A DNA stretch of 64,000 nt from a virus: the IMG/VR virus record IMGVR_UViG_3300030099_005362. One strand, given 5' to 3'. The notes under the pieces are model-generated. The model searched no databases. It saw only the letters and a list, made by a program, of their open reading frames with translations, and had not been told where the DNA came from. The position numbers were made by a program, and so were the translations under genes. Below, piece after piece: positions 35,411 to 63,017 of the stretch; positions within the stretch are counted from its first letter, which is position 1, and the number at the start of each line of letters is the position of its first letter.

Positions 35411-35450
35411 ATTATATATCAACTATCGTCGTTTGTCAATCGGTTATTTA
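35411..35450 (-). promoter_or_regulatory. Composite sigma70 + sigma28-like promoter
   Basis: TAAAT-6-TTGACA-aacgaCGATA...-TATAAT. Confidence 0.8.
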
Positions 35451-35962
35451 GATTTTTTCTGAATTTTTTCTGAGGCTTCTATCAAGTGTTTCGCAGATAG
35501 GTCGTCTTTTGAGATGAATATAAGGTCAATCTTTTCTTCAATCATCTTATATATATTCACGTAGTTTGGGGAGCTACTGCACATCTTTGGGTTGGAAATG
35601 TCTGAAAAATATATCTTTTCTATTCCACACTGGTAAAGCATCTGTAGGCAAGATAGGCATGGAATGGCCGTTATGTATGCCGAGGCACCTAATGTAGATC
35701 TACCAATCCTTACTGAATTATATATGGCGTTTGCTTCGGCGTGTATCATGAAGGGATATTTTTCGGGTCTGGTGTTTGGCAAGCAGTCGTCGTCTATATC
35801 TCTTATAAAGCCATTATAACCAGACGATATTACCGTTCTGTCTTTTACTAGAACACACCCGCATTGCGTTTGTGTATCGTGGCTTCTTCTAGACCATAGA
35901 GTAGCCTCTTCAAAAAATATGTTGTCCCAATCGCTTGGTTTCTTTTTATTTAATATTACCAT
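35444..35962 (-). CDS. dCMP deaminase (start moved downstream of tmRNA)
   Basis: RSHD..TQCG, GYNG, HAEANA, PCLSC. Confidence 0.9.
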   Translation of the reverse strand: MVILNKKKPSDWDNIFFEEATLWSRRSHDTQTQCGCVLVKDRTVISSGYNGFIRDIDDDCLPNTRPEKYPFMIHAEANAIYNSVRIGRSTLGASAYITAIPCLSCLQMLYQCGIEKIYFSDISNPKMCSSSPNYVNIYKMIEEKIDLIFISKDDLSAKHLIEASEKIQKKSK

Positions 35963-35973
35963 AATCCTAGCAG

Positions 35974-36314
35974 TGGAGGCGGCGGGAATCGAACCCGCGT
36001 CCTGCATTGATTCCATAAAAACATCTACATTGTTAGCCTGCTGTAATCGCACAACAAACAAAGCTATCCGATTATCGGAGTCAGATGGATTACCATCATC
36101 TCACGATTAATTCAAGTAGTGAGTCCTCTATCTAGGAACGGCCTAGCCCGTTCATGATTGGGCATGAAGGCTCATGAAGCCCCCTGCTGCTACGCAGCGA
36201 GTGCGAAATTCTCTTCGACACTTAAAAAAATATAATCGGTTTTTATACTGGCCAACCGATCAACCAGTCAATGCAGTCTTTACTTCCACAATCAGTCGAA
36301 GCCTAATCGCCCCC
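35974..36314 (-). ncRNA. ssrA: tmRNA, tag (A)VEENFALAA
   Basis: 5' GGGGGCG...TTCGAC; 3' GGACGCGGGTTCGATTCCCGCCGCCTCCA; G3.U Ala identity pair; TAAGT-GTC GAA GAG AAT TTC GCA CTC GCT GCG TAG. Confidence 0.95.
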
Positions 36315-36316
36315 CC

Positions 36317-36871
36317 TTATCTTACTTGTATTTCCATGTCCAGTAATCTTTCTATTTCCTTTGGTATTTTCTTTATTATAGTATGTCTATCGGGCTTTGT
36401 CAACTCCTTTCTTGAAGAAATTTCCACAATTCTTGCGTTTAGTACTTCTGGATCGTACATTGTTTGTGTTCTCTTTATCTGTTTAGAGATCACAACCCTT
36501 TCACATTTATCTGACTGGTCATAGTAATGAGTATACCATTTGTCTTTATAAAGATACGGAGAGATGCCGCTTGTTTTATTGAGTCCATAATTATTATTAT
36601 GAAGAGTAAAATAGTCTATAACTACATAGTCAGAGCCTTGATACCAATTTCCGGTAAGCTCACCTTCTTTTATCTCTGGTAGTAATACATTCTTGCGATA
36701 CTCCCAGAATATAACTTGGGTGAATTGCTTTTTAATCTCTCCGCTGTCACTATCTCTAAAATACTTATGATTAATCTCTATCATATCTACGTAGTCAACG
36801 ACAAAAGTTTTTTCTTTTGTCCCAGCGTCCAAGAAGACAATCAGTGTCAATATTTTGACTACGTTGAGCAT
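36317..36871 (-). CDS. Hypothetical exported protein
   Basis: Hydrophobic N-terminus. Confidence 0.6.
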   Translation of the reverse strand: MLNVVKILTLIVFLDAGTKEKTFVVDYVDMIEINHKYFRDSDSGEIKKQFTQVIFWEYRKNVLLPEIKEGELTGNWYQGSDYVVIDYFTLHNNNYGLNKTSGISPYLYKDKWYTHYYDQSDKCERVVISKQIKRTQTMYDPEVLNARIVEISSRKELTKPDRHTIIKKIPKEIERLLDMEIQVR

Positions 36872-36877
36872 CAGACA

Positions 36878-37606
36878 CTATCCAACACCCAAGAGCATCA
36901 TACTGCGTCCACCTCCGCCACCGGCAGTACCTTCTCTGAGAGCAATATTAGCAAATGCAATGGCATCAACCTCACCGCCAACCACGCTAATTGTGTCTAT
37001 CTGTAAGGCACCTACGGTCTCCGCTGAGACGGAGTTTTTCTGTATGCTAATCATTCCAACTTCTGAGCCTGTCAGTATTGCTCGTCTAGTATGACCCGTG
37101 AATGATTGTGCGTTGTCGAGCGTTCCCTCGTCACCGTTGTCGTTACACGCAGCAATTCTGAACAACTCATCATCAAATGAGTCTGTAGTACAGGACGCTA
37201 TATTGAAATACGGAGGAAAACCGGGGGTTTGATATTTTTTAACGTTGTCTTGGCCAGACCCTCTTAGCACAAGCGGCTGTCCTGTATTACATCCAGAAAA
37301 TCTATGAACAATAAATCTCTTGTCAGAAGCGTTATCAGTACTACTTGTAACTGGATTTGATTCAGAGGAAGTGGCTATCTTGTAAAAAACAAAGAAACGA
37401 CAAAGGTTTGTTCCAAAGTAAGCGTCTGTGGCCTGCTCATCGACAAGTTGTGTATAGCCAGTCGGGGTACTGAGTGCGAAGGCACCCTCGTGTACACCAG
37501 CAATAAGTATCAAATCGTTTTCTACCACTCCCGCAGGTAGGGCTATTGTTAAGCTAGTCCCCGATGTAAACGAGGTAGTTTGTGTGCCTTCTAATACTAC
37601 TGCCAC
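36878..37606 (-). CDS. Putative virion accessory beta-rich protein
   Basis: S/T/G-rich; C-terminal GGGGGRSMMLLGVG; late-type motif at 37651. Confidence 0.5.
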   Translation of the reverse strand: MAVVLEGTQTTSFTSGTSLTIALPAGVVENDLILIAGVHEGAFALSTPTGYTQLVDEQATDAYFGTNLCRFFVFYKIATSSESNPVTSSTDNASDKRFIVHRFSGCNTGQPLVLRGSGQDNVKKYQTPGFPPYFNIASCTTDSFDDELFRIAACNDNGDEGTLDNAQSFTGHTRRAILTGSEVGMISIQKNSVSAETVGALQIDTISVVGGEVDAIAFANIALREGTAGGGGGRSMMLLGVG

Positions 37607-37669
37607 TTTACTGCTCCAATTTTATTTTATGAAAACTTTTAAGCCACAATAGTATACACAATTTATCTT

Positions 37670-39052
37670 TTAACCGGCATTTGGATTATATAGATTTATC
37701 TCATCGTATTCATATCTATATAGCCGTTTACCGTTATTTTGTCGGGGTATTTGTTCTAATAGAGACTCAGACCATGTGGCACAACGTCCACAGTTTCTTC
37801 TGCCCTTATTTCCACCGTGTGAAATTGCTGAATATTCAGCTATGTGCTGCACGGGAGAGGGGTCACAAAACCACATTGTTCTTCCCATTATGTTCATTAT
37901 CTTTCCTATTGCTGTATCGCTGTTCTGCACCCTCCAAGGTTCTGCCCTTCTCTTCTCTTGCATTGACTCCCAAGCGGATTTTGTTCTTAGTCTTGCTCCT
38001 AGCCAGTTTTTAGTAAAGTCTAGCTCAACCACCTGCTCCAGTATTTTTCTAGGCCAAACTAGGGCACAGGCACCCCACATGCTCTTTGTTATTACTCTAT
38101 TTACTCCACGATCCCTTTGCTCTGTCTTTTTGTGTGGCTTAAGACTATAGTGCTTGGGGGTGTAAAGTGAGACAAAACCAACCTCTGTATCTGGCCACAG
38201 GATGTTTTGCTCTAAAAAGGTCTTTGAATCGGGATGAAACAGTGAATCGTCCTGTACCGTAAGAATAGTATTTGCATCGCTATTTTCTAAAGCATATCTA
38301 CAGGAGTCTAGCCAGTTATGCCAAACTCCTCTCTTTGTCTCATTGTTAATGGTAAATTCTTCGTATTGCTTCCCAAGGCCACGAACATTTGGTTCCGCAA
38401 ATATAAAGGGAGTAAATCCCGCTATCTGTAGTGACTCAACACAGTTCTGTAGAGTTGAAACTTTTCTAGGTGCTGTAGTCACTGCACAGAACCACTTTGT
38501 CTTGGGATTATCGGCTTCTTCTTTTTCTCGTACCTTGTTAATAGCAGACTCCACCAGTCTTTTGGCTACAACTTTAGTAGCTGACGAAGGAACCCAACTA
38601 AACAAAACCCTTTTATTAGACTCTGCTACTAGGTGATCAATTATTGCCTGTTTGTTGTTGGTGCATCCTTCTACTCCCCATATGTTCATCTTCTTGGCCC
38701 AGCTTTTACAAGAACAACCGGGCCTTTCTAAAAACTTTGGTATCATTTTGTGTAGCTCTGTACCAACTCCTTCTCCTATCTTCTCTGAGACAGAACGAAG
38801 AAGGTTTTCTCCTGATTCTTCTGCGGCCTTCAGTGCTAACTTTTGAACCGTCTTACAGGCCGCCGTTTTTCCATCCTTATGCCAGTTACAGATTTCACAT
38901 CTGTAGGGATTTGGTATTTTTGCCGGAACCCCAGCCATATCAGATGCGAGTTTGCATATTTTATCTTCACCAAAATCTGCCAGATGATGACAGTCAATGT
39001 CTTCCCAAGTTGCGTCTGGGTTCCCTATTATCATGTGAAATTCTTTAGCCAT
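37670..39052 (-). CDS. Cys-rich N-terminal domains fused to a GT-A-like glycosyltransferase domain
   Basis: VTTAPR..TL..ESL, VQDD (DxD-like), PSPVQH; N-terminal Cys motifs incl. GCSC..WAKKMN.WG. Confidence 0.6.
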   Translation of the reverse strand: MAKEFHMIIGNPDATWEDIDCHHLADFGEDKICKLASDMAGVPAKIPNPYRCEICNWHKDGKTAACKTVQKLALKAAEESGENLLRSVSEKIGEGVGTELHKMIPKFLERPGCSCKSWAKKMNIWGVEGCTNNKQAIIDHLVAESNKRVLFSWVPSSATKVVAKRLVESAINKVREKEEADNPKTKWFCAVTTAPRKVSTLQNCVESLQIAGFTPFIFAEPNVRGLGKQYEEFTINNETKRGVWHNWLDSCRYALENSDANTILTVQDDSLFHPDSKTFLEQNILWPDTEVGFVSLYTPKHYSLKPHKKTEQRDRGVNRVITKSMWGACALVWPRKILEQVVELDFTKNWLGARLRTKSAWESMQEKRRAEPWRVQNSDTAIGKIMNIMGRTMWFCDPSPVQHIAEYSAISHGGNKGRRNCGRCATWSESLLEQIPRQNNGKRLYRYEYDEINLYNPNAG

Positions 39053-39070
39053 TTGTACTTTCCGTTTGGT

Positions 39071-39316
39071 TTATATAATATAAATAGGAGTGTTATTACC
39101 GACATAGGCTCCAAAAGTATTGTACTCAAGCCACTCTAGAGCCTCGTCTTGATCTATACTAAGATTATTTGCTGCTATCTCTACCATTTTCGGAATATAA
39201 TAAGCAACCCTTCCTGAATCGTGGCCACCACAAACGCCAATAATAGCGTCGTCATAACCATTGGCAAACAGAAGATCATCGCCAAAATATTCGCACAACT
39301 TTTCACGAATTCCCAT
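39071..39316 (-). CDS. Conserved small phage protein
   Basis: GYDDAIIG...EALEWLEYNTFGAYVGNNTP motif. Confidence 0.7.
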   Translation of the reverse strand: MGIREKLCEYFGDDLLFANGYDDAIIGVCGGHDSGRVAYYIPKMVEIAANNLSIDQDEALEWLEYNTFGAYVGNNTPIYII

Positions 39317-39482
39317 GTCCCTTGAATCCTTTTTTCCATGTTTTCTTGTCCTTGTCCCACCATTGTCGATACTTTTCTACTATCGTCTTGGACTTTTCGT
39401 TAATCAATTTTATATGCTCCCGAAACGCCTGAAGCTCTGCTTCATCTGTTTTGCGGGGTTTATATTTTTTCTTTTTTGCCAT
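39303..39482 (-). CDS. Small basic protein (MAKKKKY...)
   Basis: ORF tiled within the operon. Confidence 0.5.
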   Translation of the reverse strand: MAKKKKYKPRKTDEAELQAFREHIKLINEKSKTIVEKYRQWWDKDKKTWKKGFKGHGNS

Positions 39483-39483
39483 A

Positions 39484-40044
39484 TTAAGTTCTCTCAACGC
39501 AAACAACGGCGATCTGACGACCTAACACAGAGCAGGGCTGTGAAACTTGGGCACACTGACAGTTTAGCGATCCTGTCGAGCTATCACATTCATCAACTAT
39601 TATGTCATACGCCCAGTGATCAAAACACTTCCATATACAGTAACCGTCTTGGAGGCAGTCTTCTCCGGGTGGCCCCAGACTTGAGAGCGAAAGAGACTCA
39701 GAAACCGTGGAAACCGACACGGAACTAGAGCCTAACGACGACGAAGCAGACGACGAAACCGAAAAAGAGGAACTGCTACCCGACGAGGACGATCTAGATG
39801 AAGAAGACGATGAAGAAGATAAAGACCTAGAGGAAGACAAGGATGACGAAGACGACAAAGATGACGAAGACGACGAAGCAGACGACGAAGCAGACGAAGA
39901 ACTAGACGACGAAGACGATGAAGCAGACGACGAGGAAGAGCTAGACGATGACGACGACTGGGAGGAACTGCTGCCACTACTGCTACTTGATGAGCTTGAG
40001 CTACTACTAGGATCGTCTTTGCAGCACTTGCACGGCCTTCCCAT
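39484..40044 (-). CDS. Poly-serine protein with Cys-rich termini
   Basis: MGRPCKCC, then about 110 aa mostly Ser, then a Cys-rich C-terminus; GGAG RBS. Confidence 0.7.
   Translation of the reverse strand: MGRPCKCCKDDPSSSSSSSSSSSGSSSSQSSSSSSSSSSSASSSSSSSSSSASSSASSSSSSLSSSSSLSSSRSLSSSSSSSSRSSSSGSSSSFSVSSSASSSLGSSSVSVSTVSESLSLSSLGPPGEDCLQDGYCIWKCFDHWAYDIIVDECDSSTGSLNCQCAQVSQPCSVLGRQIAVVCVERT
39720..40008. repeat. Low-complexity trinucleotide-like tract (TCG/TCT/TCA codons) encoding poly-Ser
   Basis: gacgacgaag-type repeats on the + strand. Confidence 0.85.
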
Positions 40045-40081
40045 TTCTTCTCCAGATACTAACTTTTACTATTTTTACTAT

Positions 40082-40399
40082 TTAAGTGGTCTCGTATGGC
40101 CAAATTTTTGCAAGCTCATCCGTAACTCCCTGTATCTCCACTATCCATCTACCGTATTTACCGGTCTTGTTTGTTTTTATAATAACGCTGCCCTCATAAG
40201 GAAAGGACGCCTTAGACTTTTCTAAAAGTTCCCTGCACATCTTTGCCGCCACGATAAAATCCTTGTGGCCTCGCTCTGGAGTATCTACACCAGCGAGCCT
40301 GCCCCTAACTTTCATATACACACTGAACCCTAGATCTACGATAAAGTCAACAGTGTCTCCGTCAACAACCCTGTGTACAGTAGCCTTGTATTCATACAT
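40082..40399 (-). CDS. Thermonuclease (SNase-like)
   Basis: MYEY...RVVDGDTVD..DLGF...RLAGVDTPE...GKYGR. Confidence 0.88.
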   Translation of the reverse strand: MYEYKATVHRVVDGDTVDFIVDLGFSVYMKVRGRLAGVDTPERGHKDFIVAAKMCRELLEKSKASFPYEGSVIIKTNKTGKYGRWIVEIQGVTDELAKIWPYETT

Positions 40400-40614
40400 T
40401 ATTGGGGAAACCACCTGTCTAGTGTATCTAGTCTATCCTCTGCATCAGCCAGTTTTGACAATGCCTCGTTTAAATTGGAGTGTAGGTCTTCAGTGCTATG
40501 GTCTCCTATCCCAGCGGGATGGTCTAGCATTATATTAAGACTGCACAAAGCCTCGGCTCTATCTGCTCTAGCTTTCATATAAAGGGACTCGATAGCACTA
40601 TCTCTATATTCCAT
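40399..40614 (-). CDS. Conserved small phage protein
   Basis: HPAGIGDHS motif. Confidence 0.65.
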   Translation of the reverse strand: MEYRDSAIESLYMKARADRAEALCSLNIMLDHPAGIGDHSTEDLHSNLNEALSKLADAEDRLDTLDRWFPQ

Positions 40615-41356
40615 TTAATATCCTTTTCTTAAAGTTGGTTTCACTGTAATTATAGTAAAGTTTAAAATCTTTAGCATATGTTTTTTGTAACCATTTCATA
40701 TTTTTTTCAGATATTGGTCTTTGATCGGCGTTTGAGCTTCTATTTTTGTGAGGAAGAATGTAATCTAATCCTAGTTGTTTTGTTAGGTAGTCAATTTCTT
40801 GCTCTATATTATCCATTATAATTACAATAGAGGGCTTGAGATACCAACTAGCCTGCGGCTCAAATGGAAATATATACTGACATTTTTTAGGGCCGATGTA
40901 GTTTAATGCTGATTCTAAAACATTAGACTCTATAATATATTTTATGGTATATGCGAGTGCTCCCGTACCCTCTCTTAGTATAGAAATCCAAGCGTTTGGC
41001 CTATTCGACAAGGCCTGTATGTCTTTAAAAATCTGAGATTTTCTATTGTCTATGAATGTTGGCAGACTTATCTTTTTGTCTTTATTTTTTTTTCTGATAG
41101 ATTTGAAATGGTCATCTATCTTTTTGTGCTTTTCTGATAGTGTTTCTTCACACATTTCAAAAAAGTCTGAAACATACTTGACAGCAGACTTAAATCTATC
41201 TACTGGATTTCTAATTATTAGTATTTGATTTTTTATAGACGGGCTACTTACGTCTGCTCCGTGACCGTTGTACTTTATGAGGCCGTTGCTTTGAAGGCAA
41301 AGGTGTCTCATTGAAGTACCCGCTGTCTTGGGCACATGAATAAAATTAAACATCAA
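40604..41356 (-). CDS. Sulfotransferase family 2 protein
   Basis: FIHVPKTAGTS (5'-PSB) and RNPVDRFKS (3'-PB). Confidence 0.85.
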   Translation of the reverse strand: MMFNFIHVPKTAGTSMRHLCLQSNGLIKYNGHGADVSSPSIKNQILIIRNPVDRFKSAVKYVSDFFEMCEETLSEKHKKIDDHFKSIRKKNKDKKISLPTFIDNRKSQIFKDIQALSNRPNAWISILREGTGALAYTIKYIIESNVLESALNYIGPKKCQYIFPFEPQASWYLKPSIVIIMDNIEQEIDYLTKQLGLDYILPHKNRSSNADQRPISEKNMKWLQKTYAKDFKLYYNYSETNFKKRILNGI

Positions 41357-41673
41357 AAGTCAAGTTCGGAATTGAACTCCTCTGTCAACTCTATGTAGTC
41401 GGAAAGTGCCAGCATTATCAATAATATATACTGATTCAACTCACAGGGAGTTAGTTCAAAGCCCTTTTCTGCTATTTTATGTCTTAGATGAAGCCTTTGT
41501 CCCCTATCTAGCTCGCAAATTGTCATTAGATAGTGTGTTGTTTCTGGATCTCCATCTAGAAAAAGATCTATAAAGTTACTGTAGGAGTCCCAAGCTGTGT
41601 TCTCCTCAAGTGCTGGTTCATACAGGCTCCTTAGTATCCTGCTAATTCTTTTTTTCTCCATTGTTCTATTCAC
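41353..41673 (-). CDS. Hypothetical protein
   Basis: ORF downstream of the motif at 41703. Confidence 0.55.
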   Translation of the reverse strand: MNRTMEKKRISRILRSLYEPALEENTAWDSYSNFIDLFLDGDPETTHYLMTICELDRGQRLHLRHKIAEKGFELTPCELNQYILLIMLALSDYIELTEEFNSELDF

Positions 41674-41712
41674 TTTTAACGAGGGTTTTCTCTGCTATAT
41701 TTCTATACGCAA

Positions 41713-42771
41713 TTAAATCGAGTTATCAAAGTGTGTTCTACCTACTTTTATAGCCTTAGCACATTTTGGCAAATCCTTAAGGGACGTGGCTCCAACATAA
41801 GCACAACAGCTACGTAGACCTCCTTTAACGTCACTCATAACAGAGTCTGCTGATCCCTTGTATGGCACAATTTTAACTCTACCCTCGCTGGTAGCATAGT
41901 TATTCATGCCTCCGCTATGTTTATCCTGTGCTTTTTCGGACGACATACCGTAAAATTTAAGACCCGTTTTCTTTTCTTCAGTAGAATATTGCCACTCTCC
42001 CTCACATTCGTCTGTTCCTGCGAACATACCGCCCAGCATCACAAAGTCGGCATTAGCAGCGAAGGCCTTGCAAATATCAGCAGGGATTCTACATCCTCCA
42101 TCGGCACATACCAGCCCCATCTTTCCATCGCCGCTTTTTAGTCCGTGAGCAGCATGGCTACATTCAATAATTGCTGAAAGCTGTGGGTATCCTACTCCAG
42201 TTTTTAGTCTTGTTGTACAGGCACTTCCCGGTCCAATACCTATCTTTACAATATCAACACCGCCATGAAGAACCAACTCCTGAACCATCTCAGGTGTACA
42301 AACGTTGCCAGCCATAATGATTGAATCTGGAAAATGTGATCTAACCAACAAACACCATTCTACAAATTTTTCAGTGTATCCATTGGCAATATCTATGCAA
42401 ATATTTGGGCTAGAGTGGATTCCTTTTTTGATGGCGTGTAGTTTCTCTAAATCGTTCTTATTCATTCCTATAGAAACCCACACGCTGGACTCTATATTGT
42501 AGTATTTAAAGTACTCCACAACCCTGTCAGGATCGTGGTACTTGTGAAGGCATGTTACCGCTTCGTGTTTTGACAAAGCAGCACCCATATTAAAGGTGCC
42601 AGTAGTATCCATATTGGCCGCAATAATAGGGAGTCCATGCCACTCTTTTGGCGAGTGAAAAAACTTGAAGGTTCTTTTTAATTGTACTTCCTTTCTACTG
42701 GCGGAAGGCGAGCGTGCTGGAACCAATAGGATGTCGTCAAAGTCTAATTTAGTTTCGTCTACTATTTTCAT
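41713..42771 (-). CDS. guaC: GMP reductase
   Basis: [44 protein letters not shown]. Confidence 0.93.
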
Positions 42772-43386
42772 TTATTCCCAATCGTAAGATACAAACCATT
42801 TACTAAAGTCTTGCTGTTTCAAAACCACGCCCTGCTTACCGCCCATATAGCTTATGGGTCTGAAGCCAGCAGTCTTGTTGACGTTGTTATAAAATTCTTT
42901 AACTCTGGGCGACCACATTATGCCCCATTTAATTTGCTGACTCTTGGACTCCACTAATTTAATATGGCGATCAAAGTCATAATCTCTTGGCTTTCTTAGG
43001 TCTGTTCCACATCTCACTGAATTATAGATAAAGAGAATGCTCGCTTGTTCTCTAACATAAGCCTTCAGATCATTTTCTTTTAATGTAAATTTACCAGCCG
43101 TAGGAACCCACTTAATCTCTAGCGGCTCATCTGTTAGTTGTGCGTCTAATCCTTCGCCTCTTATTGATCCAGATATTTTATAGTCAGCACCGGCGGTATT
43201 CCCTTTAGCAATAAACTCTCCATCATTGCCGCAACCATTGTCACTCCATTCTGAAACATGTAGGCCGCACGCTCCAGACTTAACTTTTTCTAGCCACTCA
43301 GTAAAGAAATATTTCTCTAGTTTTGTGGCAAAGTGAATGTCTTTTTTAAAAGTTGACACGCTTCTGTTATCGAATCTCGTTGACAT
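42772..43386 (-). CDS. PD-(D/E)XK-like hypothetical protein
   Basis: AD...LEIK pattern. Confidence 0.45.
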   Translation of the reverse strand: MSTRFDNRSVSTFKKDIHFATKLEKYFFTEWLEKVKSGACGLHVSEWSDNGCGNDGEFIAKGNTAGADYKISGSIRGEGLDAQLTDEPLEIKWVPTAGKFTLKENDLKAYVREQASILFIYNSVRCGTDLRKPRDYDFDRHIKLVESKSQQIKWGIMWSPRVKEFYNNVNKTAGFRPISYMGGKQGVVLKQQDFSKWFVSYDWE

Positions 43387-44979: not shown

Positions 44980-45007
44980 ATTATAAAGTACAATAGCTAA
45001 TTGTCAA
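44980..45007 (-). promoter_or_regulatory. sigma70-type promoter
   Basis: TTGACA-16-TATAAT. Confidence 0.7.
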
Positions 45008-52501: not shown

Positions 52502-52541
52502 ATTATAACATACCTATCGGCATTTGTCAATCGGGTCTTTA
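52502..52541 (-). promoter_or_regulatory. Composite sigma70 + sigma28-like promoter for the tRNA cluster
   Basis: TAAAG-6-TTGACA-aatGCCGATA-7-TATAAT. Confidence 0.85.
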
Positions 52542-54024: not shown

Positions 54025-54064
54025 ATTATAATATAGTTATCGTCGTTTGTCAATAGGTTCTTTA
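54025..54064 (-). promoter_or_regulatory. Composite sigma70 + sigma28-like promoter for rIIB
   Basis: TAAAG-6-TTGACA-aacgaCGATA-7-TATAAT. Confidence 0.85.
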
Positions 54065-54392: not shown

Positions 54393-54687
54393 CCTTGCTG
54401 CTCCACATCATAGTCCTCGATGGCATAGTCCCAATCTTCTGGTAGTCCTCTGACATCTACACACATGCCACCTTCAATGACTACTGTGATTTCGTGATAC
54501 CTGTCCACTACCATCTCATGCTTGCTTAAAGTTACTGTATTACTCATCTTTCAATACTCCTTCTACGCAGAGAATTTCCCACGCATCATCCATCGCAGAT
54601 TGTAAATGTTTAGTATAATAGTTATCGGGTACATCTTCAAGAACATTAAAGTATAAACTTTCAATTACCTGTAAAAGATATTTGTTA

Positions 54688-55201: not shown

Positions 55202-55418
55202 CTTCAATCTCCCTGTTATATGTTTTCCAATCTTCATCGTAAACACCAGTCTCACTATCGAAGATGTTTTCAAAAACTACTACTATATCGCCTTCTAAAA
55301 TTCGTTGAACAAACTTTGCCTTAGCCTGCTCGATAAGAGTTTCTGGATCAGTTCCAATAGGAGCATCAACAGCAACACAACTATCAAGAGTAAAATCATA
55401 TGATACTTTGTTACTCAT
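55194..55418 (-). CDS. Small acidic protein (MSNKVS...)
   Basis: Starts in the repeated 19-bp junction. Confidence 0.55.
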   Translation of the reverse strand: MSNKVSYDFTLDSCVAVDAPIGTDPETLIEQAKAKFVQRILEGDIVVVFENIFDSETGVYDEDWKTYNREIEDE

Positions 55419-55429
55419 CTTCAATCTCC
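55194..55429 (-). repeat. Exact 19-bp direct repeat GGAGATTGAAGATGAGTAA (55194-55212, 55411-55429)
   Basis: Identical RBS+start junctions; a variant at 54540-54560. Confidence 0.85.
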
Positions 55430-55801
55430 TTACCACCAGCTAGAGTAAACAACAGTGTAACCTTGTTTGATTGCGGCACGAGCCTCACGGATAAACTCAC
55501 GGTCTTGCTCGGCGTAGTGATCGTCAGAGTTTGCACCGAAGAAGAATCCTACTGTCTCTGGTAGTGCTGACTCGTCGAGACTCTGTTCCAGAGCGTCCAA
55601 GTCCTCCAGCGTCAACTCAAGGTCAACACAGTTGAACGATTCTTCACCACCCTTCTCATGGTAGAGTTCTTCCATCCACCCTTGCAGGTTGGGATGCTTA
55701 CGCCAGTAGGCTAACTCCATGCTATCTTCGTAGTAGGTGTAACCATCTGCGTCTGTTGATGGTTCGCCCTTGCGGGCTGTTGCGTATTGATCTAGTCCCA
55801 T
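55430..55801 (-). CDS. Conserved phage early protein (MGLDQY/YWRKH family)
   Basis: MGLDQYA...YWRKHPNLQGWM...GFFFG...YSSWW. Confidence 0.75.
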   Translation of the reverse strand: MGLDQYATARKGEPSTDADGYTYYEDSMELAYWRKHPNLQGWMEELYHEKGGEESFNCVDLELTLEDLDALEQSLDESALPETVGFFFGANSDDHYAEQDREFIREARAAIKQGYTVVYSSWW

Positions 55802-55835
55802 TTTAATTCTCCTGTGATTGGTTAGTTGTCCTTTT

Positions 55836-55863
55836 ATTATAACATCTATCGGCTAATTGTCAA
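55836..55863 (-). promoter_or_regulatory. sigma70-type promoter containing GCCGATA
   Basis: TTGACA-attaGCCGATAgatgt-TATAAT (16-bp spacer). Confidence 0.75.
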
Positions 55864-56049
55864 GAGGCTCAATACATATTTTTCAAATTTTCTTTTGTTT
55901 TTTCCAAGTCCTCATAGTATTCTAAGACAGCCGGACAGTCATCTGCTGTATCACTGCGATCCAAAACATTTACAATGTAAGTCTCATCTGGGCAGTAAAT
56001 TCCAAGAATGATTCCATCCTCGATCTCTACAATAATGTTTTTGTCCATT

Positions 56050-56355
56050 TTATCTCCTAATTCTTCCTAGTAAATCTTTATGTTTGTCAACAGGTTCTTC
56101 GGTCTTATCTACAATCATCTGTTCATCGGGATAGTAGAAAACAAAATATGAATGTATGATCTTAGTGTTTGGACAGAACTGCCCCATCTCATATGTTGTT
56201 TGCCACACATTAATTCTATATCGTTGAATGTTACCCTTCTGCCACAAGAATCCGGCACGAATCTTTGATATATTTTTTAACTTGCTAAAGTTGCACTTCT
56301 CCTCCAAGAAGTCTTTAAGAATGTTATCTGGTATTTGTGGTTTAGGTTTACTCAT
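56050..56355 (-). CDS. Hypothetical protein (MSKPKP...)
   Basis: RYRINVW motif; downstream of rIIA. Confidence 0.55.
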   Translation of the reverse strand: MSKPKPQIPDNILKDFLEEKCNFSKLKNISKIRAGFLWQKGNIQRYRINVWQTTYEMGQFCPNTKIIHSYFVFYYPDEQMIVDKTEEPVDKHKDLLGRIRR

Positions 56356-56377
56356 TTTAGCTGGCTCTGGCGGTTTG

Positions 56378-58321
56378 CTAATTGGTTTCTTCTTGGTTCT
56401 CACGAATAGTTCCTCCAATGTAGTTTGCGATCTTGGTTTGGTATTCCTTGTCGGTTGACTGCATCTCCCAGTCTGACAGGAATGTGAGCATCTCGTACTT
56501 GACGAAGAACTCGTCCATCATGTCCTGAATCATAGTGTCCTTCTCCATCTCGGCTATAGCCTCGACACGATCCTTGTTGATGTAAGATACCCAGTCAGCG
56601 ATCTCGCTGTTGCTCTGTTGCTCTACAAGTGCCACCATGTCACTGATGTCGTCGTGCTGCATGTGTTCGTGCATCTTCTTGAACACATTGAACTGGCGAA
56701 CATTATAGTCGTAGTACGTCTTGGGTGATCGTACAATTAGCTCACGCTTGACGTAATCTGCAAGGTCGATGAAGTTACCGTCCTTGAACTGCTTGGTCTT
56801 GAGGAACGCTGACTTCAGGGCAACAACTTTTGGTGCGTCGATACCACACTTCTCCAGACGACTCAATGCTCTCTTGACATCGCTGTTGCTGTAGTACACA
56901 CCATCACCACCCACTGGCTCCCAACGATTGATCTCGATGTACACTATCTCGTCGCCATCAATAGTTAGCTCGGCCTCGTCGAAGGAATCCTTGTTTGTGA
57001 AACCAGAGAAGTTGCGGTCAAATACGAATGTCTTGACTGTGCTACCCGCTTTGGCGTAACTTTGGCGTACAACTTTGGGCAAGTCCTCCAAGTCTAGCAA
57101 TACGTCCTCGTCGATCAGACACTCTTTGATCTGCTCGTCTGTCAGGATAACCATTGTTAGCTTGTTGAAGTCCTTGATGTACTCTCTGATACGAGTCTGC
57201 ATACGGTCTTTGTGACGGTAATACTTGATATTCTCGCCTACTGGTACACGCTTGGACGTGGCCTTGTCGGTGCTACGCCAGCTACGCTGGAAGTAGGTGA
57301 ACTCTTTGCTTGTCTCTGGCAGGTCGTACTGCTCAAGGTCTGCTTTGACATGCCTACCGAGATTGCCTTGACGCAAACGGTTTGCAAGAACAGCCTGCTT
57401 GAATGGAGAGTCCAACGCTGCGATTTGCTGACTCGCTTCGGTTGCTAATTTATCTTTTACTTGCTGGAACTTATCCTTGATGGCCTGCTTGGTCTTGTCG
57501 TCCATAGCAAGATTCTCACGGGCAGTATCAAAACTCAACTCGCCTAGATCGAACTTGAGATAACCTTTTGTGTTGAAGTCATCTAGCTCATCAGGAATCT
57601 TGTAGGCGATATTGCCCATAAGAGCATACATGCTACCCCAACTGGCGGTCAAACCAAAGTCCTCACCCTTGAACGCATAGTCGTCACGGGTTTCCTCGAT
57701 GGTACGCACAACGCTTTTATCGTTGATGTTTGGTACAGTACCTTCCCAGAACCGGAACACGTTAGCCGCTTCTTCTGAGAACTCGTACACCTTGCCCTCT
57801 ACAGATAGCGTGACCTCCAGACCGTTTTTGCCGCCCCATCCACACTCTGTAAGCAGAGCAACCACTGGCTTGCGATCTTCGTCACGATAGCATGTGTAGG
57901 TGCGGCATGTTCCGTTGATATAACTTTTTACGGTAAAACTATCTGTCATAGAGTATGGCGACAGACTACCGATACCAAAGCAACCAATGACCTCGTTGCT
58001 GTCACGCTTGGTGCTGATACCAATACCAGCAAAGATGTTACGCACCTCGTCGTCTGTGAGTCCAGTACCGTAGTCACGAATAGAGAAGTATGGCTCTAAC
58101 TGTGTTGGCAGATGAACGTCGAACGGAATGTCCGTAGTGCCAGCCATAACGTGACTGTCATGTGCGTTGCAAGAAAGCTCACGGATAATCGCTCGCTCTT
58201 TGTGAGAGTATACCTTGTCGGCAAACATATCTACGATAAACGCAATGTCGCCAATAGCAAAGTCAGATGTTTCAAAGTCGCCGTGTACTGCTACGTTCTG
58301 TTCTTCTGTGTAAAGTTTCAT
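56378..58321 (-). CDS. rIIA: rIIA-like protein with N-terminal GHKL ATPase
   Basis: IIRELSCNAHDSH, IRDYGTGL, STKRDSN..IG.FGIGS.SP, F..GEL....RE.L. Confidence 0.88.
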   Translation of the reverse strand: MKLYTEEQNVAVHGDFETSDFAIGDIAFIVDMFADKVYSHKERAIIRELSCNAHDSHVMAGTTDIPFDVHLPTQLEPYFSIRDYGTGLTDDEVRNIFAGIGISTKRDSNEVIGCFGIGSLSPYSMTDSFTVKSYINGTCRTYTCYRDEDRKPVVALLTECGWGGKNGLEVTLSVEGKVYEFSEEAANVFRFWEGTVPNINDKSVVRTIEETRDDYAFKGEDFGLTASWGSMYALMGNIAYKIPDELDDFNTKGYLKFDLGELSFDTARENLAMDDKTKQAIKDKFQQVKDKLATEASQQIAALDSPFKQAVLANRLRQGNLGRHVKADLEQYDLPETSKEFTYFQRSWRSTDKATSKRVPVGENIKYYRHKDRMQTRIREYIKDFNKLTMVILTDEQIKECLIDEDVLLDLEDLPKVVRQSYAKAGSTVKTFVFDRNFSGFTNKDSFDEAELTIDGDEIVYIEINRWEPVGGDGVYYSNSDVKRALSRLEKCGIDAPKVVALKSAFLKTKQFKDGNFIDLADYVKRELIVRSPKTYYDYNVRQFNVFKKMHEHMQHDDISDMVALVEQQSNSEIADWVSYINKDRVEAIAEMEKDTMIQDMMDEFFVKYEMLTFLSDWEMQSTDKEYQTKIANYIGGTIRENQEETN

Positions 58322-58358
58322 GTTCTAATCCTTGTGGTTGGTTGGTTAGTATGCCTCT

Positions 58359-58398
58359 ATTATACCATAGGTATCGGCATTGTCAAGAGGTAACTTTA
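58359..58398 (-). promoter_or_regulatory. Composite sigma70 + sigma28-like promoter for rIIA
   Basis: TAAAGTT-5-TTGACA-atGCCGATA-7-TATAAT. Confidence 0.85.
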
Positions 58399-58568
58399 GA
58401 TTTTTCTCTTTTTTTTCTTTCCCAATCTAAAGCCGCACATAAACACTGTATGATGTAATGTTCTGTGAATCCCGCTAATGGAACTGAATCTGGTGATGGA
58501 TGGTCGTGTGTACCAAAACTGTTGATACATTTAGTTATGATTTCTTTTTGTTTCTCGCTGTAGTTCAT
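58383..58568 (-). CDS. Small hypothetical protein
   Basis: Early-region ORF (MNYSEK...). Confidence 0.45.
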   Translation of the reverse strand: MNYSEKQKEIITKCINSFGTHDHPSPDSVPLAGFTEHYIIQCLCAALDWERKKREKSKVTS

Positions 58569-58840
58569 CTTCAAGTTCCTGCACTTCCATTAACTGGTTA
58601 AACGCTTCAATTCTAGTTACTTCGTACAATTTTCCTTTGTGTTCGTACAAGTCTCCTTCCTTGTAGCCATCTTGTAAGTCAACGTAATAACTTCTAAACT
58701 TATTCACTATTCTTCCTCAATTAGTAGTTCGATCTCACCTTTCTGCAACTGCTCGATGTACCAAGCGGTTGCCTGCTCACGGGCATCTTCTTCTGACTCT
58801 GCCTCAAACGCACAGCCTGATTCAATATACATGTAGTATG

Positions 58841-59233
58841 TCATGCTTCCACCTTGCAATCTTCTACGGCAAAACGCTCGATAGTCTCAGCCACAGGAAT
58901 GTAATATAAAGACGATACTAAATCATAGTTGTCTGTAGGAGAATCACCCCAACTCATGCCTCCGGTATAAAGAAACCTCATTCGTTCACCCTTTTCATTA
59001 TATTCCCAGTCTGTGCCACAGTCTCTAGGTTCGCCCAAGTTCATTACCTGTTCGATTGTATCGAGACACGCTTCCTGAATTTCAGTATCGCTCTCGTCGT
59101 CCCAGAACAATTCATCACGAAGATTCTCGTAATCTTGCGGAGTAAGGTTGGACAGTTCTTCTGTAAGAACCTTCTTGCGATCTTCTGTCATTCTGAATAC
59201 TGGAGTCTTAGCCAGTGTAAAATCTGCACCCAT
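58841..59233 (-). CDS. Acidic hypothetical protein (MGADF...)
   Basis: GGAG RBS; TGGMSWGDSP motif. Confidence 0.6.
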   Translation of the reverse strand: MGADFTLAKTPVFRMTEDRKKVLTEELSNLTPQDYENLRDELFWDDESDTEIQEACLDTIEQVMNLGEPRDCGTDWEYNEKGERMRFLYTGGMSWGDSPTDNYDLVSSLYYIPVAETIERFAVEDCKVEA

Positions 59234-59275
59234 TGTAATGCTCTCCAAAGGTTAAAAGTGTCGGTTACACTATCA

Positions 59276-59315
59276 ATTATACTATAGGTATCGTCACTGT
59301 CAAGTGGTTACTTTA
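59276..59315 (-). promoter_or_regulatory. Composite sigma70 + sigma28-like promoter
   Basis: TAAAG-7-TTGACA-gtgaCGATA-7-TATAAT. Confidence 0.82.
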
Positions 59316-59321
59316 GTTTTT

Positions 59322-59507
59322 TTAGAAAAATTTGACCTTTTCTTTTTCTAGAAGGTATCTCTTTGTTATGGATGCCATGTCGTTCATGGTAAACTTAACA
59401 GCAAGTTGTTTTACCGATTGTGTTTCTTCTTCGGTTTCCAGTTCAGATTTAGCCCACTCTAAGTTTTTGCTATAAAGTTTTCTTACGCTTTTCTTGTTAA
59501 TTTCCAT
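59322..59507 (-). CDS. Small hypothetical protein
   Basis: Early-region ORF. Confidence 0.45.
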   Translation of the reverse strand: MEINKKSVRKLYSKNLEWAKSELETEEETQSVKQLAVKFTMNDMASITKRYLLEKEKVKFF

Positions 59508-59603
59508 GATCTTCGTACCAATTCGTAAAGTCCAACAAAATATAGAGACAAAGTAAGGTTAGGTTGAATAGTCAAGCATATTGCCAAGAAAGATATATCC
59601 GTT

Positions 59604-59792
59604 CTACTCATCTTTGTTGTCATGTCTTATCTGCACCAGAAAAACAGCAAGAGATTTAAGCATGTCGGAATATTCTTTGTCTGTCCATCCCATCATTTTT
59701 TTATTTATGTCATAGAGGGTTGTACCCTCTGCTCTGTCTAGCATATCGAGTGCTATTTCAAGATGCCTTATGAATTCACTCTTGTCTGGCAT
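59604..59792 (-). CDS. Small hypothetical protein
   Basis: AGGA RBS. Confidence 0.5.
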   Translation of the reverse strand: MPDKSEFIRHLEIALDMLDRAEGTTLYDINKKMMGWTDKEYSDMLKSLAVFLVQIRHDNKDE

Positions 59793-59979
59793 GTGTTAGT
59801 TCCTTTAACTTTGATATTAAACCCTTGAGCGTAGCGGAGATTTTTTCATGCTCTTGAACGCTCCAAGAATCTTCTAATGCCTTTTCGTAATACCTAATTG
59901 CCAAATCAACCTGTTCTATTTCGTATTCTCTGGTAATTTGCATAATCTTGCTCCGTTTTCGAGTAAAGGTTACTGTGGT

Positions 59980-60019
59980 ATTATATACTATATTTCGTCT
60001 ATGTCAATCCCAAACTTTA
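59980..60019 (-). promoter_or_regulatory. Composite sigma70 + sigma28-like promoter
   Basis: TAAAGTTT-4-TTGACA-tagaCGAAA-7-TATAAT. Confidence 0.75.
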
Positions 60020-60415
60020 CAAATTTTTTATCTTTTCTATGAGTTTTTCCTCTGGGACTAAGCCGGTCGTTCTCTCCTTCTCCTTGTCTCCATTTAAGAA
60101 TATAATTGTAGGTATTAGTTTGATCTTATGCTTCGACGCTTCTTTCTTGTCTTTGTCTACGTCATACATAATGAAGTCAACTTTATCTAGTTCTTTTTTA
60201 ACATTCTCTTTTTTTAGAACCTGTTTCATCAGTCTACAGGGAGAACACCAAGTCGCCCCAAAATATAAGACTCTTTTATTGTTGTCCTGCTCGTCAGAAA
60301 CAAACACGCTTTCCGGCTCAATAAAGTTTCGATCATCAATTTTCTTTTGCGGATATGAGGCTACCAGAAATGGCACTATAAAGAACAGCATACAAATGAT
60401 TGCTACGTTTCTCAT
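60017..60415 (-). CDS. Exported thioredoxin-like protein
   Basis: Signal peptide; FGATWCSPC; IPT. Confidence 0.88.
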   Translation of the reverse strand: MRNVAIICMLFFIVPFLVASYPQKKIDDRNFIEPESVFVSDEQDNNKRVLYFGATWCSPCRLMKQVLKKENVKKELDKVDFIMYDVDKDKKEASKHKIKLIPTIIFLNGDKEKERTTGLVPEEKLIEKIKNL

Positions 60416-60464
60416 TTTAGTTTCCTTGTTAATGTTATCTTTCTGGTATTACATACGCATTTAT

Positions 60465-60668
60465 CTAATCGTCATAATGATTTGTTTTGCCGTTATTGCC
60501 CCCGAAGTTCCAGTTAAGTCTTGTTGATCTCCAAATCCATAGCTCATAACACTTTGCACACTTGATTATGTTGCCTCTATTGGTTGGTATCTTATAAAAA
60601 TCCTTAGTTTCTTCGTTACAGTCTATGCAGATTTCCTTTTTCTTTTGTTTTTTATTTTTTTTGCTCAT
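60465..60668 (-). CDS. Small Zn-finger protein (MSKKNK...)
   Basis: CIDC...CAKC. Confidence 0.5.
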   Translation of the reverse strand: MSKKNKKQKKKEICIDCNEETKDFYKIPTNRGNIIKCAKCYELWIWRSTRLNWNFGGNNGKTNHYDD

Positions 60669-60819
60669 AAAGTTATTTTTTTCTCCAGAGTGTTCCGATT
60701 CCGTTCCTTTTTCATCATACATAATCGACAGTAAAAAGCCAGAAAAACACACAGTATATTGAGGTTCTTGCTAGGTATAAATACATAATAAAGTCATAAC
60801 ATAAAATTGTGAAAAGGAC

Positions 60820-60847
60820 TTGACATACAGCTAAAATACAGTATAAT
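60820..60847 (+). promoter_or_regulatory. sigma70-type promoter in the divergent AT-rich intergenic region
   Basis: TTGACA-16-TATAAT. Confidence 0.6.
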
Positions 60848-61217
60848 ATATTAAAGAACACACACACGATATACCAATAGTACATATAGACAAATACATA
60901 CATAAACATAAGGAGGGCATGGGGTTACGTCAATAGAAAAAATATGGATTTAACCTCCTCTACCCGCAATAAGTAATTGTCTGGGTTTATTTCCCAAGAA
61001 GTTGCCTCCAAAAGTTACTAAATTGGGACAAAAAGCCACAAAGTTGAAATTTTGTTGACCCATTTGCTCCATTTTAATACGAATATAAGGTGTATATTCT
61101 CTCGTAAAGGCTCTTTTACATCTATAAAGTAACAATGTTATTTAATTACTCTATGGCCTTACGGCCTTTTTAGCAGAGATATTAAGAAAGGTTTGAATAG
61201 GACAACTCTAACCCTAT

Positions 61218-61586
61218 ATGGAGGAAACAATGAATGTCCAAATAGACCGAAGCATCTTTAGTGATAAGTTAGAACGTAGATTTGGTGGCAAACGAGCATA
61301 TGCTGACCAGTCATTTGATCTCCTCGATGAGGTTTATGACAAAGCCCAAGAATGGTTTGATGACGAACTACAACATCATCCCAAAGACAAAGACAGCCCA
61401 CGAGACTTACGAATTTCCCTCAAAAGGTATATCTGCAATAATATAGATTTGAGTGACAGTAAGAGATCGTTTTTCGTTGGAAGTCATATATGGGTATGGA
61501 TAGCAACACAACTAATTACCTATATTGTAAAATTACTGATCGAACATCACTGGGAAGAAATATATAGTTCTGTAAAGAAGAAATAA
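61218..61586 (+). CDS. Hypothetical protein (probable start MNVQ after GGAGG)
   Basis: First ORF of the plus-strand island. Confidence 0.6.
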   Translation: MEETMNVQIDRSIFSDKLERRFGGKRAYADQSFDLLDEVYDKAQEWFDDELQHHPKDKDSPRDLRISLKRYICNNIDLSDSKRSFFVGSHIWVWIATQLITYIVKLLIEHHWEEIYSSVKKK

Positions 61587-61637
61587 ATTTGCGTATAATC
61601 TTTCGTAGCGGCATACCAACCACGAAAGGTCAATACG

Positions 61638-62321
61638 ATGAGACTGTTCTTAATTTTAGCGTTTCTATTTTTACCAATAGAATTATATGCACAAGAATGG
61701 GAAGAATCAAAAGAATCATATGAGTCTAGTATTGTTCAATTAGAATACTCTAGGGGGACATCTATAAGTAGAGGCACTGGTTCTGTTGTTAAGTTCATAA
61801 AGGATAGTGAGAGATTTCCTGATTACTATATTGGGATTGTATTAACTGCCTCTCATGTAGTCCCCGATGAAGATTCCCTAGCAACTATAACTTTTAGTAC
61901 GGGAAAGAAAACACAAAAGAATAGCGTAATAGTTAAGTTCCCATACGAAAAAGATATGAATGGTGATCTTGCATTAATAAAAGCGTTGATACCAGATGAG
62001 GTTGAACCTTTAGGTGTGACTGAAGTAGTTCCTCCTATGGGCAGCAATGTTGATCTTGGTGGATTCGGAACAGGATCGTATCGTGGCTGGACTGCAAAGT
62101 TCGCTGGCAGAAAGTTATCCGATGATGGGATTATAGTTTTGTCTTGGGGCATACAGGGAGATAGTGGCGGGCCAATTATTTATAACGGAAAGATAATAGG
62201 AGTTATATGTAGGGGTTCGGGATTAAGCAGGTACAAAGATACATCTAGAATAATAATAGCCCCAATACATGGCAGTAGCGTCAAGAGGGTAATCAACTTT
62301 ATAAAATTATATTCTAGTTAA
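61638..62321 (+). CDS. Exported trypsin-like serine protease
   Basis: Signal peptide; LTASHV, DLAL, GDSGGP. Confidence 0.9.
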   Translation: MRLFLILAFLFLPIELYAQEWEESKESYESSIVQLEYSRGTSISRGTGSVVKFIKDSERFPDYYIGIVLTASHVVPDEDSLATITFSTGKKTQKNSVIVKFPYEKDMNGDLALIKALIPDEVEPLGVTEVVPPMGSNVDLGGFGTGSYRGWTAKFAGRKLSDDGIIVLSWGIQGDSGGPIIYNGKIIGVICRGSGLSRYKDTSRIIIAPIHGSSVKRVINFIKLYSS

Positions 62322-62642
62322 ATGTTTAAAGCAAAATTCAACGCCCCCATTATATTTGGGCTTCTATGGGTAATCATGGTAAGCATGTTGGATCATTACT
62401 ATACCATAAAGCTAGAGGAAACAATTCTAGACTATGAACAGAATCCAATCGGCACGTTCCTGATTAAACTTGACTCTGGTTCCGTCGCTTTGTTCATGAC
62501 GCTCAAGATGATTTGCTTGTGGCTCTTAGTCATTGCTATTCTAATACTATACAACATAAAGAAGCTCTACGCTTATATCTCTTTAATCTCTTTATGTATA
62601 GCCCAACTACTTCTTCTTATATATTTCATCTGGGGAGTATAA
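62322..62642 (+). CDS. Three-TM membrane protein (DUF5658-like)
   Basis: LD..YT...EQNPI...K motif with TM helices. Confidence 0.65.
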   Translation: MFKAKFNAPIIFGLLWVIMVSMLDHYYTIKLEETILDYEQNPIGTFLIKLDSGSVALFMTLKMICLWLLVIAILILYNIKKLYAYISLISLCIAQLLLLIYFIWGV

Positions 62643-62652
62643 ATCAGTATTT

Positions 62653-62895
62653 TGGCTGACTCCCATCAATGGCCGCAATCAGATAGTTTTAGACTAGACA
62701 AATGTAAAAATGGCTGACTGGTGCTATATAGCTGCGACTCTAGTTAGATGAGATACGACAGTTTCAAAAAGTTGCTGGATCCGCTGACTGGCTGGTAGGG
62801 TGGCGACTCTGTTTGGTAGGGGTTCGACAGAGGTGTGAAAGTGGCTGACTGGTGGTATCTGTGGCGACTCAGTATAGATGAGATGAGACAATGTA
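62653..62895. repeat. Four degenerate ~60-70 bp units (GCTGACT...GCGACTC...GACA)
   Basis: Units start at 62653, 62711, 62781, 62842; GAC cores phased about 20 bp apart. Confidence 0.7.
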
Positions 62896-62978
62896 GAGAA
62901 GATCCTTCCAATGGGTGGCATGGGTGAAGTAGTCCTAACCCCCCAACAAGACTAGTTGACACGTTTGGTCATAGTACC

Positions 62979-63017
62979 ATTATACCATAGTATCGACATA
63001 AGTCAATAGGAACTTTA
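62979..63017 (-). promoter_or_regulatory. Composite promoter firing into the repeat tract
   Basis: TAAAG-6-TTGACT-tatgtCGATA-6-TATAAT. Confidence 0.7.

Follow-up and report, generated by a model that had tools for sequence, protein, structure and literature searches.

The subject of this work is a pair of short DNA boxes, TAAAG and CGATA, that is interleaved with consensus sigma-70 promoters in a 64 kb stretch of viral DNA (IMG/VR record IMGVR_UViG_3300030099_005362); the whole of this stretch is called the window here. Its GC content is 41% and nearly all of its genes lie on the minus strand. They include an rIIA-like gene, nrdA and genes for UvdE, thioredoxin and dCMP deaminase; four transfer RNAs (tRNAs), a true transfer-messenger RNA (tmRNA) and a small sigma factor are also encoded. 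A scan for perfect or one-off matches to TTGACA-16/17-TATAAT found 14 sigma-70 promoters on the minus strand and one on the plus strand. A preliminary description of the sequence had singled out seven minus-strand promoters as having a TAAAG box upstream of the -35 hexamer and a CGATA box in the spacer, likening these additions to a promoter for sigma-28 (FliA), and the box positions bear out the arrangement. The promoter of the tmRNA, which had been overlooked, carries the pair as well. These nested promoters are as follows, with gaps in nucleotides (nt) between successive boxes.

62979..63017 (-), nested promoter: TAAAG 63017-63013, TTGACT 63006-63001, CGATA 62995-62991, TATAAT 62984-62979; gaps 6-5-6
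59980..60019 (-), nested promoter: TAAAG 60019-60015, TTGACA 60007-60002, CGAAA 59997-59993, TATAAT 59985-59980; gaps 7-4-7; a small open reading frame (ORF) lies downstream
59276..59315 (-), nested promoter: TAAAG 59315-59311, TTGACA 59303-59298, CGATA 59293-59289, TATAAT 59281-59276; gaps 7-4-7; followed by ORF 58841-59248
58359..58398 (-), nested promoter of the rIIA-like gene (56378-58321): TAAAG 58398-58394, TTGACA 58386-58381, CGATA 58376-58372, TATAAT 58364-58359; gaps 7-4-7
54025..54064 (-), nested promoter: TAAAG 54064-54060, TTGACA 54053-54048, CGATA 54042-54038, TATAAT 54030-54025; gaps 6-5-7
52502..52541 (-), nested promoter upstream of tRNA-Ile, tRNA-Met and tRNA-Arg (52491-52264): TAAAG 52541-52537, TTGACA 52530-52525, CGATA 52519-52515, TATAAT 52507-52502; gaps 6-5-7
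36375..36415 (-), nested promoter of the tmRNA: TCAAG 36415-36411, TTGACA 36403-36398, CGATA 36392-36388, TATAAT 36380-36375
35411..35450 (-), nested promoter: TAAAT 35450-35446, TTGACA 35439-35434, CGATA 35428-35424, TATAAT 35416-35411; gaps 6-5-7; followed by ORF 34957-35403

The upstream box is TAAAG at six of the seven named sites, TAAAT at one, and TCAAG in the tmRNA promoter; the downstream box appears in the window as GCCGATA, GACGATA, GTCGATA or GACGAAA. The two boxes are 17 nt apart at all seven named sites, as had been claimed, and 18 nt apart in the tmRNA promoter, where TCAAG-N18-CGATA is combined with a perfect TTGACA-17-TATAAT. In the named promoters TTGACA follows TAAAG after 6 or 7 nt, and the reported one-base shift of this hexamer against the pair is evident from the box coordinates. 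TTGACA is alone in moving: in six of the seven promoters TATAAT stays at a constant 7 nt downstream of CGATA and thus in register with the pair. Because TATAAT moves together with the pair, the window by itself cannot separate a pair that is its own unit from one that is fixed to the -10 hexamer.

Exact TAAAG-N17-CGATA occurs six times in the window against an expectation of 0.08, and none of 100 shuffled sequences reached six. Five of the six matches belong to the named promoters. The sixth, at 23311-23337 (-), is without sigma-70 boxes; it lies inside ORF 23156-23452, 164 nt before the next gene, and is either a chance match or a rare stand-alone copy. A further pair that the preliminary description had placed at 26132-26158, with TAATG as its first box, is one mismatch away from the pattern; by a rough estimate such variants are common by chance in 64 kb, and it was not counted.

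The tmRNA (35971-36314, minus strand) is genuinely phage-encoded, matching Rfam RF00023 with 107.7 bits, and has its own nested promoter. It overlaps a long ORF call at 35444-36061, and the true start of that ORF must therefore lie further downstream.

The pair in related phages

The window was compared with at least 118 IMG/VR stretches (1.02 Mb in total) that match the composite promoter pattern, a pattern whose chance expectation in IMG/VR is, by our own estimate, far less than one match. Among the matches listed, 88 of 118 relatives have proteins in common with the window, at 23-100% identity. Among 50,697 phage records, a megablast search with 8 kb of the window and a blastn search with one 51-nt promoter detected neither a relative nor a promoter of this kind. 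The phage can be placed in a diverse, uncultured family of large aquatic phages, since it has no close isolate and has proteins in common with those 88 relatives. The matches that had served to fetch the relatives were masked before the counts that we call non-ascertained were made.

When the masked relatives were searched for TAAAG-Nk-CGATA with k from 0 to 40, there were 64 matches at k=17 and 133 at k=18, with 0-10 at any other spacing; k=16 gave three matches, which is background, even though the fetching pattern had allowed it. Two control word pairs were flat across spacings. The distance between the boxes is thus conserved in the family, but at 17 and 18 nt, and not at exactly 17 nt as the window had suggested. 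The preference for one or the other differs between contigs (chi-square p = 0.002), the window being of the N17 type. The relatives contain 446 distinct perfect sigma-70 promoters. In 81% of the 160 non-ascertained promoters whose spacer contains CGATA, a TAAAG box (no more than one mismatch allowed) lies 17 or 18 nt upstream of it; of four control distance pairs, three gave about 1% and the fourth (22/23 nt) gave 12%.

It is in the relatives that the pair separates from the sigma-70 boxes. Between CGATA and TATAAT every gap length from 2 to 8 nt occurs, and between TAAAG and TTGACA the gap varies from 3 to 8 nt, while the distance within the pair stays at 17 or 18 nt. This sliding range is about what two 8-mers allow without overlapping TTGACA. 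In some relatives TTGACA precedes TAAAG and TATAAT falls inside the pair; in others the whole pair is upstream of TTGACA, and it can also lie wholly downstream of the sigma-70 boxes. In G004, a near-complete relative, the favoured register is displaced by 4-5 nt from that of the window, and at orthologous promoters of a given gene the register varies from phage to phage. The promoter at 55836 is a case in point: in the window it has GCCGATA only, as was correctly described, and its orthologues have the full pair in three different registers.

The boxes are also conserved where their surroundings are not. In promoters orthologous to that of the rIIA-like gene (11 distinct sequences, rIIA identity 26-100%), the 22 box columns have a conservation of 0.97, compared with 0.67 for the columns between the boxes and 0.60 for the flanks; all four boxes of 58359..58398 are kept in relatives whose rIIA proteins are only 26-57% identical. 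These comparisons strongly support the view that the pair is a unit separate from the sigma-70 boxes and under selection. Thus the earlier proposal that the pair is read as its own unit gains its support from the sliding seen in relatives, the fixed spacing within the window being insufficient for it.

The opposite interleaving forms a conserved sub-family, TTGACA-3-TAAAG-9-TATAAT-2-CGATA, found in L010 (about 7717), L031 (about 8880), L054 (about 6762) and L081 (about 8619; positions on the matched strand). In these promoters a sigma-28-type start would lie downstream of the sigma-70 start.

Four near-complete relatives (148-174 kb; G001, G002 and G004 among them) were also scanned for the pair. 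It occurs 8-15 times in each, overwhelmingly on one strand, and clusters in a single stretch of 12-28 kb, at the head of the part of the genome where sigma-70 promoters are abundant; it is missing from the consensus promoters that lie further downstream. The window is divided in the same manner. From 63 kb to 35 kb the promoters have the pair, with the exception of those at 45007, which has none, and 55863, which has the CGATA box alone; the pair is absent at 34133, 21808 and 19133, and a weak variant is present at 23993. The preliminary description was right that the promoters of nrdA and of the manA-like RNA and hsp20 are without it. The sigma-70 promoters of the window with a partial pair or none are these.

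55836..55872 (-), sigma-70 promoter: GCCGATA, with CGATA at 55851-55847, 5 nt before TATAAT; no TAAAG-like box
44980..45007 (-), consensus sigma-70 promoter without the pair, inside the pair-bearing region
34105..34133 (-), consensus sigma-70 promoter of the manA-like RNA / hsp20; no pair
23965..23993 (-), consensus sigma-70 promoter with a weak variant only, TCAAA-N18-CGACA at 24005-23965
21780..21808 (-), consensus sigma-70 promoter without the pair
19105..19133 (-), consensus sigma-70 promoter of nrdA; no pair

The placement of the pair marks it, on the evidence of these genomes, as an add-on to the earliest host-type promoters. It lies in the first part of the early region, where transcription has to work before any phage protein exists. 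Candidates for a stand-alone pair number about five to eight and are no commoner than in a reversed-pattern control or by chance. No claim is made that the pair works alone, the candidates being at the chance background.

The sole plus-strand consensus promoter (60820-60847) is also without the pair. It diverges from the early region and drives three plus-strand ORFs (61218-62642), one of which encodes a trypsin-like peptidase (61638-62321).

Likeness to sigma-28 promoters and the candidate host

The pair in the relatives has the form (C/T)T(A/C)AAG(A/T)TT ... tG(C/A/T)CGATA(A/T). Its -35 box is TAAAG in 67 of the 160 non-ascertained promoters, TCAAG in 34, TTAAG in 12 and TGAAG in eight; it is preceded by C or T and followed by wTT. 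Two nt before CGATA there is a G in 89% of cases (GC 53%, GA 24%, GT 11%), and A or T follows the box in 79%. A sigma-28 consensus based on mutational work is given as TAAAGWWY-N11/12-RYCGAWRN (Yu et al. 2006, as quoted in PMC8762339), and the boxes of the open complex formed on the fliC promoter of Pseudomonas aeruginosa are TCTAAAG (-36 to -30) and GCCGATAA (-15 to -8), with a conserved arginine reading the extended -10 G/C (PMC12784957). The phage pair shares with sigma-28 promoters both boxes, the preceding C, the A/T run, the choice of A or C at position 2 and the extended -10 G; the GACGATA forms break the Y of the consensus. The likeness that had been noticed in the window therefore extends to the flanks of the boxes as well as to the boxes themselves, and by this comparison the pair is a match to the sigma-28 consensus that includes the extended -10 G. 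In the terms of that consensus, the seven named sites have a spacer of 12, at the upper end of the tested range of 11-12, and the tmRNA promoter has a spacer of 13. The promoter at 62979..63017 fits TAAAGWWY-N12-RYCGAWRN completely.

Planctomycetota is the candidate host phylum, and 90 regions upstream of its flagellin genes (L149-L178 and L200-L259) were searched for T[AC]AAG-Nk-CGAWR. There were 14 sites at k=16, 12 at k=17, none at k=18 and at most one at any other spacing; the antisense control gave three sites. Several of these planctomycete sites look much like the phage boxes. N17 is a normal sigma-28 spacing in this phylum, because the census splits almost evenly between k=16 and k=17. 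Flagellin is present in 80 of 151 Planctomycetota genomes, and FliA scores above its curated cut-off in both of the planctomycete genomes that were checked. The census was used instead of a genome-wide search for the spacing of TAAAG...GCCGATA in five bacterial genomes, which was too noisy against its controls.

The planctomycete sites, with spacers of 11 and 12 nt in 14 and 12 cases respectively, may serve as a reference for the annotation of motility regulons. As an untallied impression, TCAAG seemed commoner in GC-rich and TAAAG in AT-rich Planctomycetota genomes.

Candidate readers of the pair

We consider it about an even bet that the early promoters of the 35-63 kb region are two promoters in one, with host FliA as the most likely reader of the second. 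Each would consist of two promoters packed into approximately 40 bp. The first would be the consensus housekeeping promoter, TTGACA-16/17-TATAAT. The second would be of the sigma-28 family, T(A/C)AAGwwy-N12-G(C/A/T)CGATAw, with its -35 box just upstream of TTGACA and its -10 box in the sigma-70 spacer. The overlap would make the two holoenzymes exclude each other, so that one polymerase at a time could be on the site. Eσ70 would start approximately 7 nt after TATAAT, and a sigma-28 holoenzyme is expected to start 7-8 nt after its own -10 box; the geometry of the P. aeruginosa fliC complex (PMC12784957) predicts a sigma-28-type start approximately 11 nt further upstream, in the first bases of TATAAT. 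Were host FliA the reader, injection would turn on the first genes together with the tRNAs and the tmRNA in cells with either holoenzyme, including motile cells that are rich in sigma-28. Alternative sigma factors melt DNA poorly, and an easily melted TATAAT at the sigma-28 start site might explain the favoured register. That in this family the immediate-early genes, tRNAs and tmRNA are under the motility sigma factor of the host as well as the housekeeping one, so that infection would start at full strength in swarmer cells, is a more tentative proposal whose chances we put a little short of even.

The preliminary description had suggested that two sigma factors read these promoters, naming as the second either host FliA in flagellated cells or the sigma factor of the phage itself. 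A separate sigma-28-like signal is strongly supported; of the two candidate readers, host FliA fits better than the phage sigma because the pair is found at the earliest promoters and because N17 is natural before planctomycete flagellin genes.

Several observations weigh against host FliA. The spacing N18 (a spacer of 13) is the commonest in the family as a whole, lies outside the tested optimum of 11-12 and is absent before planctomycete flagellin genes, while canonical N16 goes essentially unused. A BLAST search with the tmRNA as a guide to the host, against 401 Planctomycetota genomes, matched the universal 3' end only and gave no host signal. In species-representative genomes the composite pattern was found in 30 stretches, nearly all of them phage-like contigs mis-binned into metagenome-assembled genomes (MAGs) of about a dozen phyla; the few matches in cultured genomes look like chance tRNA promoters. 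The pair is almost never found alone, and a regulator site placed on sigma-70 promoters would explain this equally well. Finally, a profile built from five orthologues of the phage sigma factor has WhiG, of the sigma-28 family (7lq4), as its best and sole full-length match of solved structure (E=1e-8).

The contigs with promoters of this family have been filed in bacterial and even archaeal MAGs of many phyla, probably as binning errors. The SAR202 MAG OSU_TB57 (L121, L123, L136, L137 and L147; contigs of 152 kb and 64 kb) apparently contains an entire phage genome; such contigs also occur in Planctomycetaceae Bse_15 (L128, L142 and L148) and in several Flavobacteriales MAGs.

The WhiG match also speaks for the first alternative, in which the pair is a promoter for the phage sigma factor, here called sigma A, and keeps the early region, tRNAs and tmRNA transcribed once host sigma-70 is no longer used. 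The features of the window that bear on it are listed here, with the matching sites of one relative.

20415..20894 (-), sigma factor A: 159 amino acids, regions 2 and 4, no region 3
20402..20409 (-), late-type motif TGCGTATA, directly after the sigma A stop codon
13203-13210, 32600-32607, 37653-37660 and 41704-41711 (-), TG(C/T)GTATA sites
61590-61597 (+), TG(C/T)GTATA site
G004: 15 TG(C/T)GTATA sites (L187-L194)

Sigma A has one orthologue in each of the four complete relatives (five of five genomes with the window), that is, in every complete relative that has the pair. With regions 2 and 4 it would therefore need a promoter with two boxes, and the 17/18 spacing of the family differs from the one that is canonical for sigma-28; a sigma factor without region 3 might space its boxes differently. 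The protein passes only the generic sigma-70/extracytoplasmic function (ECF) model. On the other side, it aligns with E. coli FliA in region 2 alone (32% identity) and does not retain the basic residues that FliA has in region 2.4. It has no region 3, yet the extended -10 G is better kept than any other flank of the pair. The pair is never found before genes that have no sigma-70 promoter and is absent from the middle and late parts of the four near-complete genomes. The sigma A gene itself is at the end of the early region behind a pair-less promoter, and is followed at once by TG(C/T)GTATA. The choice between 17 and 18 nt is not in step with how closely the sigma A proteins are related, the window (17) being closest to G004 (18), although with n=5 this is weak evidence. 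We regard sigma A as a rather unlikely reader of the pair.

TG(C/T)GTATA may possibly be the real target of the phage sigma. The sigma A stop codon is directly followed by it in the window and G004, and by its form GGTGTATAA in G001 and G002. The motif has no -35 partner and is enriched before late genes and before genes outside the sigma-70 region; it is likely to represent a late promoter class.

Sigma A belongs to one of two orthologous groups of small sigma-like proteins in these phages. Members of the second group (G001 22476-22994, G002 10758-11270 and G004 25145-25690) have approximately 170-180 amino acids with region-2-like similarity only; those of G001 and G004 lie at the early region's edge. 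An orthologue of this group was not seen inside the window.

In a second alternative the pair is no start signal: a protein of phage or host origin binds it and turns the first class of sigma-70 promoters off (or up) together, for instance to end immediate-early expression. Such a protein could account for the presence of the pair on or beside sigma-70 promoters and for its restriction to one positional class of early promoters, other consensus promoters being without it, and a blocker would tolerate the sliding that is observed. It accounts less readily for the form of the signal: the two boxes are unlike, they keep one orientation with respect to transcription and their spacing flexes by 1 nt, which are the habits of a sigma factor and not of a dimeric regulator. 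Furthermore, boxes and flanks together reproduce the consensus of one specific sigma factor, and in some relatives the pair lies wholly upstream of the -35 hexamer, where a bound protein would not block polymerase. We judge a regulator site to be improbable.

Early promoters of large phages can spread as cassettes, as in T4-type phages. This background, the A/T-rich upstream tracts and the single register of TAAAG, CGATA and TATAAT in six of the seven named promoters would suit a third alternative, namely one long sigma-70 promoter (an UP half-site plus a spacer element) or a cassette inherited by duplication. This is very improbable indeed, for the pair moves by up to 6 nt, and sometimes by approximately 20 nt, relative to both hexamers in the relatives, the sequence between the boxes varies while the boxes are kept, and about half of the equally perfect sigma-70 promoters have no pair; an UP element or spacer element, like the simple inheritance of a single cassette, is excluded by a pair that slides, leaves the interleaved position and changes register between orthologues, and both were rejected as contradicted by the register data.

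Relation to known systems

The early promoters of phages are, in textbook accounts, purely housekeeping promoters, and searches of the full-text literature for sigma-28-type promoters in phage early regions found no report of them. If host FliA reads the pair, these would be the first phage promoters to be served by sigma-28, and early phage transcription would be tuned to the physiological state of the host, motile or not. In that case the difference between 17 and 18 nt among phage lineages would report the FliA geometry of their hosts, providing a possible handle on host identity. Alternatively, a phage sigma factor of the FliA/WhiG lineage may re-use the early promoters. Compact natural promoters for two sigma factors could be of use in synthetic biology, and the pair pattern is a sequence tag for this phage family in metagenomes, where one pattern retrieved at least 118 contigs.

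The closest parallels to the pair are the class 3 flagellar promoters that depend on sigma-28 (FliA of E. coli, Salmonella and Pseudomonas, SigD of Bacillus and WhiG of Streptomyces). They too have (C)TAAAG or TCAAG followed by A/T, GCCGATA(A/T) with the extended -10 G, a fixed orientation and a spacing that flexes by one base; the spacer of 12 in the window is within the tested 11-12. In contrast to those promoters, the phage pair precedes early genes, tRNAs and the tmRNA, not motility genes, and is always within or beside a consensus sigma-70 promoter. The spacer in the family is 12-13 and never 11, and GACGATA is frequent.

Some bacterial genes are served by both sigma-70 and sigma-28, as is the case for fliA, flgM and fliD of E. 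coli and Salmonella; their two promoters are usually separate and the sigma-70 promoter needs FlhDC. These genes resemble the phage promoters in that housekeeping and flagellar holoenzymes can start the same gene. They differ from the phage arrangement, in which the boxes are interleaved in approximately 40 bp, both sets are near consensus and there are 8-15 copies per genome.

Phage sigma cascades offer a further comparison, examples being gp28 and gp33/34 of SPO1, gp55 of T4 and the sigma factors of phiEco32 and 7-11 (PMC8948821). The family described here likewise has genes for small phage sigma factors, and a temporal cascade is suggested by TG(C/T)GTATA, its distinct motif of the late type. 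However, the promoters of those cascades stand alone before middle and late genes, whereas the second signal described here is restricted to the earliest promoters of the host type.

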